Assembly (NCBI RefSeq): GCF_000026545.1
Contig: NC_011601.1
Reading direction: 5' to 3' (one strand)
Origin: Escherichia coli O127:H6 str. E2348/69
Lineage (GTDB): Bacteria > Pseudomonadota > Gammaproteobacteria > Enterobacterales > Enterobacteriaceae
Length of the DNA: 64,000 nucleotides
A program made the position numbers and the translations under genes. Shown here piece by piece: positions 336-55,043 of the stretch. Each line of letters opens with the position of its first letter. Position 1 is the stretch's first letter. Below the pieces are notes generated by a model. That model worked only from the letters and a program-made list of their open reading frames with translations, had not been told where the DNA came from and did not search any database.

Positions 336-2798
336 ATGCGAGTGTTGAAGTTCGGCGGTACATCAGTGGCAAATGCAGAACGTTTTCTGCGGGTTGCCGA
401 TATTCTGGAAAGCAATGCCAGGCAGGGGCAGGTGGCCACCGTCCTCTCTGCCCCCGCCAAAATCACCAACCACCTGGTGGCGATGATTGAAAAAACCATT
501 AGCGGCCAGGATGCTTTACCCAATATCAGCGATGCCGAACGTATTTTTGCCGAACTTTTGACGGGACTCGCCGCCGCCCAGCCGGGGTTCCCGCTGGCGC
601 AATTGAAAACTTTCGTCGATCAGGAATTTGCCCAAATAAAACATGTCCTGCATGGCATTAGTTTGTTGGGGCAGTGCCCGGATAGCATCAACGCTGCGCT
701 GATTTGCCGTGGCGAGAAAATGTCGATCGCCATTATGGCCGGCGTATTAGAAGCGCGCGGTCACAACGTTACCGTTATCGATCCGGTCGAAAAACTGCTG
801 GCAGTGGGGCATTACCTCGAATCTACCGTCGATATTGCTGAGTCCACCCGCCGTATTGCGGCAAGCCGCATTCCGGCTGATCACATGGTGTTGATGGCAG
901 GTTTCACCGCCGGTAATGAAAAAGGCGAACTGGTGGTGCTTGGACGTAACGGTTCCGACTACTCTGCTGCGGTGCTGGCTGCCTGTTTACGCGCCGATTG
1001 TTGCGAGATTTGGACGGACGTTGACGGGGTCTATACCTGCGACCCGCGTCAGGTGCCCGATGCGAGGTTGTTGAAGTCGATGTCCTACCAGGAAGCGATG
1101 GAGCTTTCCTACTTCGGCGCTAAAGTTCTTCACCCCCGCACCATTACCCCCATCGCCCAGTTCCAGATCCCTTGCCTGATTAAAAATACCGGAAATCCTC
1201 AAGCACCAGGTACGCTCATTGGTGCCAGCCGTGATGAAGACGAATTACCGGTCAAGGGCATTTCCAATCTGAATAACATGGCAATGTTCAGCGTTTCTGG
1301 TCCGGGGATGAAAGGGATGGTCGGCATGGCGGCGCGCGTCTTTGCAGCGATGTCACGCGCCCGTATTTCCGTGGTGCTGATTACGCAATCATCTTCCGAA
1401 TACAGTATCAGTTTCTGCGTTCCACAAAGCGACTGTGTGCGAGCTGAACGGGCAATGCAGGAAGAGTTCTACCTGGAACTGAAAGAAGGCTTACTGGAGC
1501 CGTTGGCGGTGACGGAACGGCTGGCCATTATCTCGGTGGTAGGTGATGGTATGCGCACCTTACGTGGGATCTCGGCGAAATTCTTTGCCGCGCTGGCCCG
1601 CGCCAATATCAACATTGTCGCCATTGCTCAGGGATCTTCTGAACGCTCAATCTCTGTCGTGGTCAATAACGATGATGCGACCACTGGCGTGCGCGTTACT
1701 CATCAGATGCTGTTCAATACCGATCAGGTTATCGAAGTGTTTGTGATTGGCGTCGGTGGCGTTGGTGGTGCGCTGCTGGAGCAACTGAAGCGTCAGCAAA
1801 GCTGGTTGAAGAATAAACATATCGACTTACGTGTCTGCGGTGTTGCTAACTCGAAGGCACTGCTCACCAATGTACATGGCCTTAATCTGGAAAACTGGCA
1901 GGAAGAACTGGCGCAAGCCAAAGAGCCGTTTAATCTCGGGCGCTTAATTCGCCTCGTGAAAGAATATCATCTGCTGAACCCGGTCATTGTTGACTGTACT
2001 TCCAGCCAGGCAGTGGCGGATCAATATGCCGACTTCCTGCGCGAAGGTTTCCACGTTGTTACGCCGAACAAAAAGGCCAACACCTCGTCGATGGATTACT
2101 ACCATCAGTTGCGTTATGCGGCGGAAAAATCGCGGCGTAAATTCCTCTATGACACCAACGTTGGGGCTGGATTACCGGTTATTGAGAACCTGCAAAATCT
2201 GCTCAATGCTGGTGATGAATTGATGAAGTTCTCCGGCATTCTTTCAGGTTCGCTTTCTTATATCTTCGGCAAGTTAGACGAAGGCATGAGTTTCTCCGAG
2301 GCGACCACACTGGCGCGGGAAATGGGTTATACCGAACCGGACCCGCGAGATGATCTTTCTGGTATGGATGTGGCGCGTAAACTATTGATTCTCGCTCGTG
2401 AAACGGGACGTGAACTGGAGTTGGCGGATATTGAAATTGAACCTGTGCTGCCCGCAGAGTTTAACGCCGAGGGTGATGTTGCCGCTTTTATGGCGAATCT
2501 GTCACAGCTCGACGATCTCTTTGCCGCGCGTGTGGCGAAGGCCCGTGATGAAGGAAAAGTTTTGCGCTATGTTGGCAATATTGATGAAGATGGCGTCTGC
2601 CGCGTGAAGATTGCCGAAGTGGATGGTAATGATCCGCTGTTCAAAGTGAAAAATGGCGAAAACGCCCTGGCCTTCTATAGCCACTATTATCAGCCGCTGC
2701 CGTTGGTACTGCGCGGATATGGGGCGGGCAATGACGTTACAGCTGCCGGTGTCTTTGCTGATCTGCTACGTACCCTCTCATGGAAGTTAGGAGTCTGA
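336..2798 (+). CDS. thrA: bifunctional aspartokinase I / homoserine dehydrogenase I
   Basis: 820-aa ORF starting [20 protein letters not shown]-track entry 294..2798 carries an N-terminal extension, the ATG at 336 is the recognised start. Confidence 0.95.
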
Positions 2799-2799
2799 C

Positions 2800-3732
2800 A
2801 TGGTTAAAGTTTATGCCCCGGCTTCCAGTGCCAATATGAGCGTCGGGTTTGATGTGCTCGGGGCGGCGGTGACACCTGTTGATGGTGCATTGCTCGGAGA
2901 TGTAGTCACGGTTGAGGCAGCAGAGACATTCAGTCTCAACAACCTCGGACGCTTTGCCGATAAGCTGCCGTCAGAGCCACGGGAAAATATCGTTTATCAG
3001 TGCTGGGAGCGTTTTTGCCAGGAGCTTGGCAAGCAAATTCCAGTGGCGATGACTCTGGAAAAGAATATGCCGATCGGTTCGGGCTTAGGCTCCAGCGCCT
3101 GTTCAGTGGTCGCGGCGCTGATGGCGATGAATGAACACTGCGGCAAGCCGCTTAATGACACTCGTTTGCTGGCTTTGATGGGTGAGCTGGAAGGGCGTAT
3201 CTCCGGCAGCATTCATTACGACAACGTGGCACCGTGTTTTCTTGGTGGTATGCAGTTGATGATTGAAGAAAACGACATCATCAGTCAGCAAGTGCCAGGG
3301 TTTGATGAGTGGCTGTGGGTGCTGGCGTATCCGGGGATTAAAGTCTCGACGGCAGAAGCCCGGGCTATTTTACCGGCGCAGTATCGCCGCCAGGATTGCA
3401 TTGCGCACGGGCGACATCTGGCAGGCTTTATTCACGCCTGCTATTCCCGTCAGCCTGAGCTTGCCGCGAAGCTGATGAAAGATGTTATCGCTGAACCCTA
3501 CCGTGAACGGTTACTGCCAGGCTTCCGGCAGGCGCGGCAGGCGGTCGCGGAAATCGGCGCGGTAGCGAGCGGTATCTCCGGCTCCGGCCCGACTTTGTTC
3601 GCTCTGTGTGACAAGCCGGATACCGCCCAGCGCGTTGCCGACTGGTTGGGTAAGAACTACCTGCAAAATCAGGAAGGTTTTGTTCATATTTGCCGGCTGG
3701 ATACGGCGGGCGCACGAGTACTGGAAAACTAA
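2800..3732 (+). CDS. thrB: homoserine kinase
   Basis: 310-aa [24 protein letters not shown], immediately after thrA. Confidence 0.95.
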
Positions 3733-21516: not shown

Positions 21517-22683
21517 GTGAAACATCTGCATCGATTCTTTAGCAGTGATGCCTCGGGAGGCATTATTCTCATTATTGCCGCTGTATTAGCGATGATTATG
21601 GCCAACAGCGGTGCAACCAGTGGATGGTATCACGACTTTCTTGAGACGCCGGTTCAGCTCCGGGTTGGGACACTTGAGATCAACAAGAACATGCTGCTAT
21701 GGATCAATGACGCTCTGATGGCGGTATTTTTCCTGTTGGTTGGTCTGGAAGTTAAACGCGAGCTGATGCAAGGTTCGCTGGCCAGTCTGCGCCAGGCGGC
21801 ATTTCCTGTTATTGCCGCAATCGGCGGGATGATTGTCCCGGCATTGCTCTATCTGGCTTTTAACTATGCCGATCCTATCACTCGCGAAGGCTGGGCAATC
21901 CCGGCGGCGACTGACATTGCCTTTGCACTTGGTGTGTTGGCGCTGTTGGGAAGTCGTGTTCCGTTAGCGCTGAAGATCTTTTTGATGGCTCTGGCTATTA
22001 TCGACGATCTTGGGGCCATCATTATCATCGCATTGTTCTACACTAATGACTTATCGATGGCCTCTCTTGGCGTCGCGGCTGTAGCAATTGCGGTACTCGC
22101 GGTATTGAATCTGTGTGGTGTACGCCGCACGGGCGTTTATATTCTGGTTGGCGTGGTGCTGTGGACAGCGGTGTTGAAATCAGGTGTCCATGCAACGCTG
22201 GCTGGCGTCATTGTCGGCTTCTTTATTCCGTTAAAAGAGAAGCATGGGCGTTCTCCAGCGAAGCGACTGGAGCATGTGTTGCACCCGTGGGTGGCGTATC
22301 TGATTTTGCCGCTGTTTGCATTTGCTAATGCTGGCGTTTCACTGCAAGGTGTCACGCTGGAAGGTTTGACCTCCATTCTGCCATTAGGGATCATCGCTGG
22401 TTTGCTGATTGGCAAGCCACTGGGTATTAGTCTGTTCTGCTGGTTGGCGCTGCGTTTGAAACTGGCGCATCTGCCAGAGGGAACGACTTACCAGCAAATT
22501 ATGGCGGTTGGTATCCTGTGCGGTATCGGTTTTACTATGTCTATCTTTATTGCCAGCCTGGCATTTGGTAGCGTAGATCCAGAACTGATTAACTGGGCAA
22601 AATTAGGCATCCTTGTCGGTTCAATTTCTTCGGCGGTAATTGGATATAGCTGGTTACGCGTTCGTTTACGTCCATCAGTTTGA
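21517..22683 (+). CDS. nhaA: Na+/H+ antiporter
   Basis: 388-aa [25 protein letters not shown] start. Confidence 0.95.
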
Positions 22684-22742
22684 CAGGACGATGTACTGGG
22701 GAGCCATAAACGGCTCCCTTTTCATTGTTATCAGGGAGAGAA

Positions 22743-23648
22743 ATGAGCATGTCTCATATCAATTACAACCACTTGTATTACTTCTGGCATGTCTACAAAG
22801 AAGGTTCTGTGGTTGGCGCAGCGGAGGCGCTTTATTTAACACCACAAACCATTACCGGGCAGATCCGGGCGCTGGAAGAGCGCCTGCAAGGGAAACTATT
22901 TAAGCGTAAAGGACGTGGTCTGGAACCCAGCGAACTGGGGGAACTGGTCTATCGCTATGCCGATAAAATGTTCACCTTAAGCCAGGAAATGCTGGATATC
23001 GTCAACTATCGCAAAGAGTCCAACTTATTGTTTGATGTTGGTGTGGCAGATGCACTTTCCAAACGTCTGGTCAGCAGTGTTCTGGATGCCGCAGTTGTGG
23101 AAGACGAGCAGATCCATCTACGCTGTTTCGAATCGACGCACGAGATGCTTTTAGAGCAGTTGAGTCAGCATAAACTGGATATGATCATCTCTGACTGTCC
23201 GATCGATTCCACTCAGCAGGAAGGGCTGTTTTCCATGAAAATTGGCGAGTGTGGTATCAGTTTCTGGTGCACTAACCCACTACCAGAAAAGCCGTTTCCT
23301 GCCTGTCTTGAAGAGCGTCGTTTACTTATTCCGGGGCGTCGCTCAATGTTGGGGCGTAAACTATTAAACTGGTTTAACTCCCAGGGCTTGAATGTCGAAA
23401 TTTTGGGTGAGTTTGATGATGCTGCGTTGATGAAAGCCTTTGGGGCGACGCATAACGCTATTTTCGTTGCACCTTCGCTTTACGCTAATGATTTCTATAA
23501 CGATGACTCGGTTGTGGAGATAGGCCGTGTTGAGAACGTGATGGAAGAGTACCACGCGATTTTTGCCGAAAGGATGATTCAGCACCCTGCAGTACAGCGT
23601 ATCTGCAATACAGACTATTCTGCGCTGTTTACTCCAGCTTCAAAATAA
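22743..23648 (+). CDS. nhaR: LysR-family regulator of nhaA
   Basis: 301-aa [51 protein letters not shown] (HTH); track start 22725 is an extension. Confidence 0.9.
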
Positions 23649-38320: not shown

Positions 38321-39106
38321 TTAACGTCCTTTCCACACTGGATCGCGCTTCTCGGCAAACGCCAGCGGCCCTTCAATGGCATCCTCCGAATGCAGAACCG
38401 ATGGATAGTGTTTCAACACGCCGCTGCGAATATAGCGATACGCTTCTTCTACCGGCATTGCACTGGTGGTGCGGTAGATCTCTTTCAGCGCCGCAATCGC
38501 CAGCGGAGCGCTGTTAACCAGCTGCTGCGCCAGTTCGCGGGCGTTATCCATCAGTTCCGCCTGGCTAACCACGCGGTTGACTACCCCCCAACGCAGCGCC
38601 TCTTCTGCGCCCATTCGTCTGCCGGTCATCACCATTTCATTGACGATGGCAGGCGGCAGGATCTTCGGCAGACGCAGCACGCCGCCGCTGTCAGGGACGA
38701 TGCCCAGTTTCGCTTCCGGCAGGGCGAAGCTGGCGTTATCGGCACAAACAATAAAATCTGCCGCCAGCGCCAGTTCAAAGCCGCCGCCAAAGGCATAGCC
38801 GTTCACAGCGGCGATAACCGGTTTGTCGAGATTGAAAATTTCGGTTAATCCCGCAAAACCTCCCGGGCCAAAGTCAGCATCCGGTGCTTCGCCTTCTGCT
38901 GCCGCTTTTAAATCCCAGCCCGCGGAAAAGAATTTCTCTCCGGCACCGGTAATAATGGCGACACGTAATTGCGGATCGTCACGGAAATTTAGAAATACTT
39001 CGCCCATTTCAAAGCTGGTTTTTGCATCAATAGCATTCGCTTTTGGACGATCAAGGGTAATTTCCAGAATTGATCCATTGCGGGTCAGATGTAATGATTC
39101 ACTCAT
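38321..39106 (-). CDS. caiD: carnitinyl-CoA dehydratase
   Basis: 261 aa from [27 protein letters not shown] (crotonase fold); track entry to 39214 is an upstream extension. Confidence 0.9.
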
Positions 39107-50652: not shown

Positions 50653-53178
<2,526 letters not shown>

Positions 53179-53263
53179 TTTTGTATATTAGAATTCCGGC
53201 ATCACTGATACGTGCAGATATCCGTGTATACTAGACGTATAAATTGTACAGGAGCACGAGATC

Positions 53264-53497
53264 ATGACTGCAAAACGTACCACACAAAGTGTGACCGTCA
53301 CCGTCGACCGTGAGTTAGTCAATCGCGCTCGTGATGCAGGCTTAAATATGAGCGCCACCCTTACGGTTGCGCTCAATGCTGAACTTAAAAAACATGCAGC
53401 AACACGTTGGCGTGAAGAGAACGCAGAAGCTATCGCTGCGTTAAATCAATTGGCTGATGAAACCGGATGTTTCTCTGATGAGTACCGGAGCTTCTAG
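53264..53497 (+). CDS. ccdA: type II antitoxin CcdA (chromosomal ccd, O157-type)
   Basis: 77-aa ORF MTAKRTTQSVTVTVDRELVNRARDAGLNMSATLTV...RWREENAEAI...CFSDEYRSF, same pattern as F-plasmid CcdA; lies in the folA-apaH intergenic region. Confidence 0.85.
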   Translation: MTAKRTTQSVTVTVDRELVNRARDAGLNMSATLTVALNAELKKHAATRWREENAEAIAALNQLADETGCFSDEYRSF

Positions 53498-53499
53498 CG

Positions 53500-53814
53500 A
53501 TGCAATTTACGGTATACCGCAGTCGCGGCAGGAACGCCGCGTTTCCCTTTGTTATTGATGTTACCAGCGACATTATTGGTGAGATTAATCGCCGTATCGT
53601 TATTCCATTAACACCTATTGAACGATTTAGCCGTATTCGCCCACCAGAACGGCTTAACCCAATCCTTTTACTGGTAGACGGCAAAGAATATGTGCTCATG
53701 ACGCATGAGACTGCAACTGTTCCAGTTAACGCGCTGGGAACGAAATTTTGCGATGCCAGCGCGCACCGAACGTTGATTAAAGGAGCATTAGATTTTATGC
53801 TCGACGGGATTTAA
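53500..53814 (+). CDS. ccdB: type II toxin CcdB (gyrase poison family)
   Basis: 104-aa [40 protein letters not shown]... ending ...FMLDGI, homologous to F-plasmid CcdB (MQFKVY...FWGI); starts 3 nt after ccdA stop. Confidence 0.85.
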
Positions 53815-54659
53815 GACGCTACCGCCTCTCCCTCACCCATATCTTTATGCCGATTCGACGGCTGGACAAAATACTGTTTATCTTCCCAGCGCAGGCAGGT
53901 TAATGTACCACCCCAGCAGCAGCCGGTATCCAGCGCGTAAATACCTTCCGGCGTACCTTTGCCTTCCAGCGATGCCCAGTGACCAAAGGCGATGTTGTAC
54001 TCTTCAGCGACGGGGCCAGGAATCGCAAACCATGGTTTCAGTGGGGCAGGGGCCTCTTCCGGCGATTCTTTGCTGTACATATCCAGTTGACCGTTCGGGA
54101 AGCAAAAACGCATACGGGTAAAGGCGTTGGTGATAAAACGCAGTCTTCCCAGCCCCCGCAATTCCGGCGACCAGTTATTTGGCATATCGCCGTACATGGC
54201 ATCAAGGAAGAAGGGATAGGAGTCACTCGACAGCACCGCTTCTACATCGCGCGCGCACTCTTTGGCTGTCTGCAGATCCCACTGCGGCGTGATCCCGGCG
54301 TGGGCCATCACTAACTTTTTCTCTTCGTCGATTTGCAGCAAAGGCTGGCGACGCAGCCAGTTAAGCAGCTCGTCGGCATCCGGCGCTTCCAGCAGCGGTG
54401 TCAGGCGATCTTTCGGTTTATTGCGGCTGATCCCGGCAAATACCGCCAGCAGATGCAGATCGTGATTACCCAGCACCAGACGTACGCTGTCGCCTAAGGA
54501 TTTCACATAGCGCAGAACATCCAGCGAACCCGGGCCGCGCGCGACCAGATCGCCCGTCAGCCAGAGGGTATCTTTCCCAGGGGTAAATTCTACTTTATGC
54601 AGCAATGCGATCAGTTCATCGTAACAACCATGAACGTCGCCAATAAGGTATGTCGCCAT
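53811..54659 (-). CDS. apaH: diadenosine tetraphosphatase
   Basis: 282-aa [23 protein letters not shown]. Confidence 0.95.
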
Positions 54660-54665
54660 ATTCTT

Positions 54666-55043
54666 TTAATGAATGAGTGTGGGAACGGCGAGTCGGAATA
54701 CGGGAATGTCGATGCTGAAAGGGACGCCATTTTCATCGATCATTTCGTAGTGACCCTGCATGGTGCCCAGCGGGGTTTCAATGATTGCACCGCTGGTGTA
54801 CTGGTACTCTTCGCCAGGCGCGATAAGTGGCTGGACGCCAACCACTCCTTCGCCCTGGACTTCGGTTTCACGGCCATTGCCATTGGTGATCAGCCAGTAA
54901 CGCCCCAACAACTGCACTGGCGCTCGCCCCAGATTGCGTATGGTTACGGTATAAGCAAAAACGTAACGTTCATTATCAGGTGAAGATTGGGCCTCAATGT
55001 AGACGCTTTGAACCTGAATACACACTCGGGGCGAATTGATCAT
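54666..55043 (-). CDS. apaG: ApaG (DUF525)
   Basis: 125 aa from [33 protein letters not shown]. Confidence 0.9.

Follow-up and report, generated by a model that had tools for sequence, protein, structure and literature searches.

The chromosomal ccdAB toxin-antitoxin module of Escherichia coli O157:H7, ccdO157, was reportedly described by Wilbaux et al. in 2007 and by Mine et al. in 2009. The survey of Mine 2009 is said to have covered 395 isolates and to have distinguished four states of the insertion site, with both genes active in approximately 69% of the ccd variants, an inactive toxin in 29% and both genes inactive in 2%; ccdB was reportedly judged to evolve neutrally, and some missense alleles are said to be inactive. 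The site, between folA and apaH, has been characterised as plastic, holding ccdO157 in O157:H7 and REP sequences or defective copies in other strains (PMC3184786; PMC7167474). Gyrase is the target of the O157 chromosomal CcdB, and the cognate CcdA is degraded by Lon (PMC5543033). This CcdB is less toxic than that of the F plasmid and has an approximately fivefold lower affinity for gyrase, and the chromosomal O157 system does not mediate post-segregational killing (PMC5543033). Within O157:H7 only the plasmid-encoded CcdA neutralises the chromosomal CcdB, and not the reverse (PMC5543033; PMC10305079). The reviews conflict on which way cross-neutralisation runs between the chromosomal system of O157 and the F-type one, with one stating the opposite, that chromosomal CcdA protects against F CcdB (PMC10886550). 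Persister phenotypes have been ascribed to ccdO157 (Gupta 2017, as cited in PMC5543033). In the B2 strains NRG857c and CFT073 the islet occupies the folA-apaH site, with an Asp at the position of F CcdB W99, and in NRG857c the ccdB transcript is induced by bile salts (PMC7232551). Reviews regard chromosomal ccd as a decaying system that cannot stabilise plasmids or prevent deletions (PMC2654758). For the chromosomal ccd of Dickeya (Erwinia chrysanthemi), an anti-addiction function against F has been shown (PMC7167474).

The locus analysed in this work lies within the window, which is the first 64 kb of the chromosome of the enteropathogenic strain E. coli O127:H6 E2348/69. Window positions 39001–64000 match E2348/69 records with 100% identity, at unchanged coordinates in NZ_LT827011.1. 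Judged by comparison with the F plasmid and O157:H7 systems, it is very probably an intact type II toxin-antitoxin operon of the ccdO157 type, both in identity and in general mechanism. Earlier publications cover the module and the site it occupies, as well as the empty state of K-12, the alternative occupants and the decay in E. coli. RefSeq already annotates both genes on the E2348/69 record, naming the product of the first ‘CcdA family antitoxin’ and that of the second ‘CcdB family protein’. The importance of the present analysis therefore goes little beyond correct annotation of a real but ordinary islet. Modest additions are that the E2348/69 allele is intact and consensus-like, that at least 46% of the carriers among 5426 complete genomes have a dead ccdB, and that an F-type ccdAB is present on the plasmid pMAR2 of the same strain.

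The left flank of the islet is the core gene folA (52699–53178, plus strand), encoding a dihydrofolate reductase recognised by the Pfam DHFR_1 profile (E = 3e-60), by the NCBIfam type 3 DHFR equivalog (352 bits) and by RefSeq annotation. It is followed by an 85-bp spacer (53179–53263), the presumed ccd promoter and operator region, which was compared by alignment with K-12, O157 and the DUF4291-containing form of the site described below, as well as by promoter scan and motif comparison. In the alignment, sequence common to the K-12 empty site stops between approximately 53188 and 53200. A Shine-Dalgarno-like AGGAG (53250–53254), read directly from the sequence, precedes the ATG of ccdA by 9 nt. 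The plus-strand genes ccdA (53264–53497, 77 aa) and ccdB (53500–53814, 104 aa, protein WP_001160966.1) are separated by 2 nt (53498–53499). The right junction is a TTAA (53811–53814), with homology to the K-12 empty site resuming at approximately 53810. Within this tetranucleotide the TAA of ccdB (53812–53814) overlaps the stop of the convergent apaH (53811–53813, TTA on the plus strand), as had been predicted from the initial reading of the sequence. The right flank, apaH (53811–54659, minus strand), encodes a 282-aa Ap4A hydrolase (NCBIfam apaH equivalog, 556 bits), in agreement with alignment and annotations. A scan of positions 52400–54800 against Rfam for structured RNA returned only a sub-threshold chance match to a miRNA.

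The original prediction placed this pair at the position of the O157:H7 chromosomal ccd, and the comparison bore this out. E2348/69 and O157:H7 share the folA-apaH site, the 85-bp spacer, the 2-nt gap and the ccdB stop overlapping apaH; the islet DNA is 99.1% identical, CcdA is 100% identical (WP_000125566.1) and CcdB is identical at 102 of 104 residues (98%). Apart from the host, which is an EPEC of serotype O127:H6, the differences in protein sequence comprise G10 and E28 in the E2348/69 CcdB, as compared to S10 and V28 in that of O157. The E2348/69 protein was aligned with 28 other 104-aa CcdBs of Enterobacterales. Position 10 is a nearly invariant Gly, and position 28 is polar or acidic (Glu, Asp, Gln or Asn) in 27 of the 28; in the twenty-eighth, P0036, this residue is likewise E28, but the N-terminus is scrambled and position 10 is an Ala. 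On this alignment the E2348/69 CcdB is in the consensus state at both positions, and the O157 residues read as derived. A literature search found no experiment or report specific to the E2348/69 ccd allele.

Assignment of the two co-directional frames to the CcdA and CcdB families, also part of the original prediction, is supported by profile, sequence and fold comparisons. CcdA matches Pfam CcdA (PF07362) over residues 8–77, the full length of the family, with E = 1.3e-26 and 93.1 bits (cut-off 22.4). CcdB matches Pfam CcdB (PF01845) with E = 6.4e-32 and 110.2 bits (gathering score 28.6), residues 2–103 covering profile positions 1–101 of 101. Against the sequences of the PDB, CcdB retrieved CcdB chains only (Vibrio fischeri, E = 5e-17; F plasmid, E = 1e-10), and CcdA retrieved F CcdA alone (2ADL, E = 9e-6). 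By homology, CcdA would consist of an N-terminal ribbon-helix-helix region and a C-terminal toxin-binding region. An AlphaFold model of CcdB, for which 31 family members were given as input, had a pLDDT of 82.2 and a pTM of 0.77, and is predicted to contain six strands and a helix at residues 87–102, the type of SH3-like β-barrel with C-terminal helix seen in solved CcdBs. When this model was compared with the PDB using Foldseek, the best 16 matches were all CcdB (TM 0.72–0.82, E down to 9e-9), followed by MazF toxins with E of approximately 1e-2 or weaker. Both proteins missed the NCBIfam F-type equivalog cut-offs (NF010264 and NF010262), with 61.2 against 147 bits for CcdB and 38.6 against 100 bits for CcdA. 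The pair is therefore best described as belonging to the ccd family but not as an F-type orthologue, in agreement with the RefSeq naming, and details of the F-plasmid system may not transfer to it.

The F-plasmid ccdAB, which encodes a CcdA of 72 aa and a CcdB of 101 aa, shares with the E2348/69 module both Pfam families, the gene order and tight spacing, the predicted fold (TM approximately 0.8 to 1VUB, 2VUB and 1X75), a C-terminal Gly-Ile and a GTATAC at a similar distance before the ATG. Identity to the F proteins is, however, only 37% for CcdB and 29% for CcdA, below the NCBIfam cut-offs, and the E2348/69 islet is chromosomal and lacks an adjacent resD-like integrase. The gyrase-contact residues of F CcdB are W99, G100 and I101. 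The E2348/69 CcdB shows no frameshift and retains the conserved Gly-Ile as G103 and I104, whereas the W99 position is occupied by Asp (D102). D102 is also present in the O157 CcdB and is nearly invariant across the 104-aa subfamily, Dickeya included. The chromosomal CcdB of V. fischeri (PDB 2KMT, 3JSC and 4ELZ), the best PDB match in both sequence and fold (TM 0.81), likewise has no Trp at this position, carrying a Thr, and ends in Gly-Ile; it differs in genomic context and is only approximately 35% identical.

The chromosomal ccd of Dickeya and the other 104-aa CcdBs of Enterobacterales belong to the same subfamily as the E2348/69 protein, with 53–74% identity. Members share an (L/I/F)DG(I/V) motif at the C-terminus of CcdB, a CcdA of 77–78 aa and the 2-nt gap, but their loci occupy other insertion sites and some copies are found on plasmids, namely in Hafnia, Klebsiella, Pantoea and Serratia. 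Upstream of the genes, Dickeya and the other relatives carry GTGTAAGTTA(C/G)AC, where E2348/69 has GTGTATACTAGAC. In distant relatives an extended −10-like TGnTAnnAT stands just upstream of GTGTAAGTTA(C/G)AC.

Within the E2348/69 spacer, a consensus scan (9/12) predicted a σ70 promoter on the plus strand at 53205–53232, consisting of a −35 element CTGATA (53205–53210), a 16-nt spacer and a −10 element TATACT (53227–53232). Promoter-like sites identified by the scan are no more numerous than in shuffled sequence, and this promoter is therefore to be regarded as a candidate only. Overlapping the predicted −10 element is a perfect GTATAC palindrome (53226–53231), 38 nt before the ccdA ATG, with an imperfect GTATAA (53237–53242) 11 bp from it and 27 nt before the ATG. 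Motif searches also identified an imperfect GTATAT (53183–53188) and a TGTACA palindrome (53245–53250). The original prediction had regarded short palindromes in the 85-bp region as consistent with an autoregulated operator. GTATAC and TGTACA are indeed present, but palindromes are no more abundant than by chance, the spacer containing four of 6 bp where dinucleotide shuffles average 2.1 (P = 0.15). Similarly, the count of GTATAC-like hexamers in the spacer, three compared to 1.2 in dinucleotide shuffles, is not significant (P = 0.085). The 64-kb window contains only 7 copies of GTATAC, and E. albertii and E. fergusonii have kept both the GTATAC and the GTATAA motif. In the F plasmid a GTATAC lies 33 nt and a GTATGT 22 nt before the ATG, the latter 11 bp downstream of the former, and this GTATAC is the central site bound by CcdA2 (PMC5389731). 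The 113-bp F operator contains at least eight CcdA2 sites spaced by approximately 12 bp, its centre being occupied by three GTATAC palindromes, and the site specificity of F CcdA2 is low (PMC5389731). Given the counts against shuffled sequence, a putative ccd operator in the spacer, proposed by its resemblance to that of F, is reasonable and plausible but unproven.

At the 3’ end of the operon, no intrinsic terminator was found on either strand of the ccdB/apaH junction. Folding of the junction gave z = −0.04 for the plus strand and z = −2.3, without a T-tract, for the minus strand. In the K-12 alignment a REP-like palindrome stands in place of this junction. The original prediction had the two transcription units terminating into each other, for which the overlapping stops and the lack of an intrinsic terminator are the observations available; convergent read-through between ccdB and apaH is thus plausible.

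By homology with the F and O157:H7 systems, ccdA and ccdB would share one transcript, started at a promoter within the 85-bp spacer, and CcdA together with CcdB would repress the operon at GTATAC-like sites overlapping that promoter. Dimeric CcdB would act as a gyrase poison, binding the dimerisation domain of GyrA and trapping the cleavage complex. The C-terminal part of CcdA would bind and neutralise CcdB, and CcdA would be degraded by Lon. The only differences between the E2348/69 allele and the tested O157 protein are its consensus residues at positions 10 and 28, and it is likely that the E2348/69 CcdB is an active but attenuated toxin, like CcdB of O157.

The main rival reading is that the islet, although intact in appearance, is a spent selfish element, its CcdB inactive or too weak to matter, without a physiological role and simply not yet hit by an obvious null mutation. 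This possibility, considered rather unlikely, draws its support from widespread decay of the locus in the species. Of 5426 complete E. coli genomes, 2024 carry the 636-bp islet, in each case as a single copy and only on the chromosome. Four ccdB null alleles were counted among the carriers by megablast, using for each a 41-mer centred on the mutation such that every 28-nt seed must contain the mutation: a 13-nt deletion (53681–53693) in 259 genomes, an inserted T (53617) in 134, C84stop (C53751A) in 118 and G95stop (G53782T), which includes an O25b:H4 strain, in 413. Provided these four mutations never co-occur, at least 924 of the 2024 carriers (at least 46%) have a null ccdB, a figure that covers the four named alleles in a genome collection skewed towards clinical lineages. 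Six variant loci were retrieved. Four of these combine a dead ccdB with an intact ccdA. In the fifth, E. coli 2017-02-2CC (1841–2571 of the locus), ccdA and all but the last 72 nt of ccdB have given way to a gene annotated as ‘IS1096 element passenger TnpR family protein’. The sixth encodes a CcdB protein identical to that of E2348/69.

The site itself is found in further states. As predicted, it is empty in K-12, where folA and apaH are separated by a 77-bp spacer without ccd, and all 16 of the ‘empty’ genomes sampled have the K-12-type folA-to-apaH span of 1400 bp. An alternative occupant was found in approximately 540 of the 5426 complete genomes, for example in E. coli 24AR0376 (2043–3381 of the locus). 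It combines what is left of ccdA (45 aa) with a hypothetical ORF of 149 aa and, in the opposite orientation, a DUF4291 gene. It matches the ‘large DNA piece with ccdA remnant’ reportedly described in Mine 2009. Both the replacement by the IS1096 passenger and the ccdA remnant beside unrelated ORFs accord with a spent islet, as does the description, in reviews, of the system as decaying and as neither stabilising plasmids nor preventing deletions (PMC2654758).

Against this reading, the ccdB of E2348/69 contains no frameshift or stop, and the protein is among the two commonest alleles, present on at least 1000 contigs. Wherever it differs from the experimentally toxic O157 CcdB it carries the consensus residue. 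The bile salt induction of ccdB in NRG857c (PMC7232551) and the persister phenotypes ascribed to ccdO157 (Gupta 2017, via PMC5543033) also argue against a spent islet. An intact operon with a probably active, attenuated toxin remains the preferred reading for E2348/69, notwithstanding the decay elsewhere in the species.

In representatives of three of the null lineages the predicted −10 element is also altered, with A53228T in the 13-nt deletion and C84stop representatives and T53232C in the +T representative; each lineage was represented by a single genome. Positions 53228 and 53232 are the two most conserved positions of the −10 element (2 and 6). These substitutions fit further decay of the locus.

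Comparison across Escherichia showed the islet at the identical folA-apaH site and with the same geometry in E. albertii and E. fergusonii. Relative to E2348/69, synonymous divergence (dS) in E. fergusonii is 0 for ccdA and 0.027 for ccdB, compared to 0.18 for folA and 0.17 for apaH; in E. albertii the values are 0.12 for ccdA and 0.115 for ccdB, compared to 0.31 for folA and 0.40 for apaH. Overall, synonymous divergence of the islet is 3–6 times below that of the flanks, which suggests that the islet was moved by recombination after the species split, by recent interspecies transfer into the same site. The dN/dS ratios, calculated from small substitution counts, are 0–0.09 for ccdA, 0.31–0.62 for ccdB and 0.03–0.04 for the flanking genes. 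Together with the null alleles in at least 46% of carriers, the ratio for ccdB points to weak selection for toxin function in the species, and it too is among the observations that favour a spent islet.

Translation of the toxin may also have been lost outside E. coli. In E. albertii, ccdB begins with ATA in place of ATG (2501–2503 of the locus), and its second codon also differs (Q2P). The ATA start probably silences translation of the toxin, a further point on the side of a spent islet. At the other end of the islet, ApaH is 282 aa long in the ccd and DUF4291 forms, as well as in E. albertii and E. fergusonii. The K-12-type empty form encodes 280 aa, the result of a 6-nt difference near the 3’ end of apaH, a few codons before the stop (window positions 53815–53850). 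From this distribution, it may be that the ‘empty’ state with its REP sequence is a derived and not an ancestral one.

The same comparisons bear on a second rival reading, in which the antitoxin is the selected part of the islet, CcdA serving as an anti-addiction factor against plasmid-borne CcdBs of the 104-aa subfamily while ccdB is dispensable baggage. In its favour, ccdA is intact in 4 of 4 representative ccdB-null loci, the annotation of 59 of the 60 rows sampled includes a CcdA family antitoxin, and the dN/dS of ccdA is low, although this ratio rests on small counts. Members of the subfamily do reside on plasmids of Hafnia, Klebsiella, Pantoea and Serratia, and the chromosomal ccd of Dickeya works in this way against F (PMC7167474). 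However, a search of PLSDB found no genuine E. coli plasmid with a CcdB of the 104-aa subfamily, and in O157 neutralisation runs only from the plasmid CcdA to the chromosomal CcdB (PMC5543033; PMC10305079). Retention of ccdA can be a simple order effect, given that a live ccdB precludes the loss of ccdA, and the predicted −10 mutations in the three null lineages are at odds with selection for the antitoxin. Selection on CcdA as an anti-addiction factor is thus considered improbable. A single near-identical ‘plasmid’ record was rejected as a plasmid-borne copy, since it also contains apaH and thus resembles chromosomal DNA.

An extended form of this idea, for which the chances are similarly slim, has the Escherichia locus on its way from a toxin-antitoxin pair to an antitoxin that stands alone under selection. 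For this, ccdB has been inactivated in at least five independent events, ccdA has remained intact in the loci read and shows strong purifying selection, and the dS of the islet lies 3–6 times below that of its flanks. If true, the islet would have spread recently between species, into a single site and with no mobility gene of its own, and the E2348/69 copy would be the ancestral, still-armed form, standing beside the F-type ccd of pMAR2.

That the two frames are chance openings in an intergenic insertion rather than genes, a reading favoured by the small size of the ORFs and nothing more, is ruled out for all practical purposes by the full-length profile matches (1e-26 and 6e-32), the predicted fold and a pair geometry kept across genera, as well as by the lack of any family match, on profile comparison, for the antisense ORFs at 53430–53699 and 53188–53376.

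The target allele in the host bears on the preferred reading of an intact operon with a probably active toxin. Substitution of GyrA R462 by Cys confers resistance to F CcdB. The gyrA allele of E2348/69 (NZ_CP059840.2, 9457–12084 of the locus) was read in this work and is wild type at R462 and at D87. The same protein carries S83L, a common quinolone-resistance change.

The EAF virulence plasmid of E2348/69, pMAR2, carries an intact F-type ccdAB (22343–22868) beside a site-specific integrase. Its CcdB is 99% identical to that of F and ends in FWGI. E2348/69 therefore has two coexisting ccd systems, like O157:H7 with pO157, and could serve for repeating the cross-talk experiments performed in O157:H7, here with an ancestral-type toxin. 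The annotation of pMAR2 also includes RelE/Phd-YefM, Hok, VapBC and TacA-type modules.
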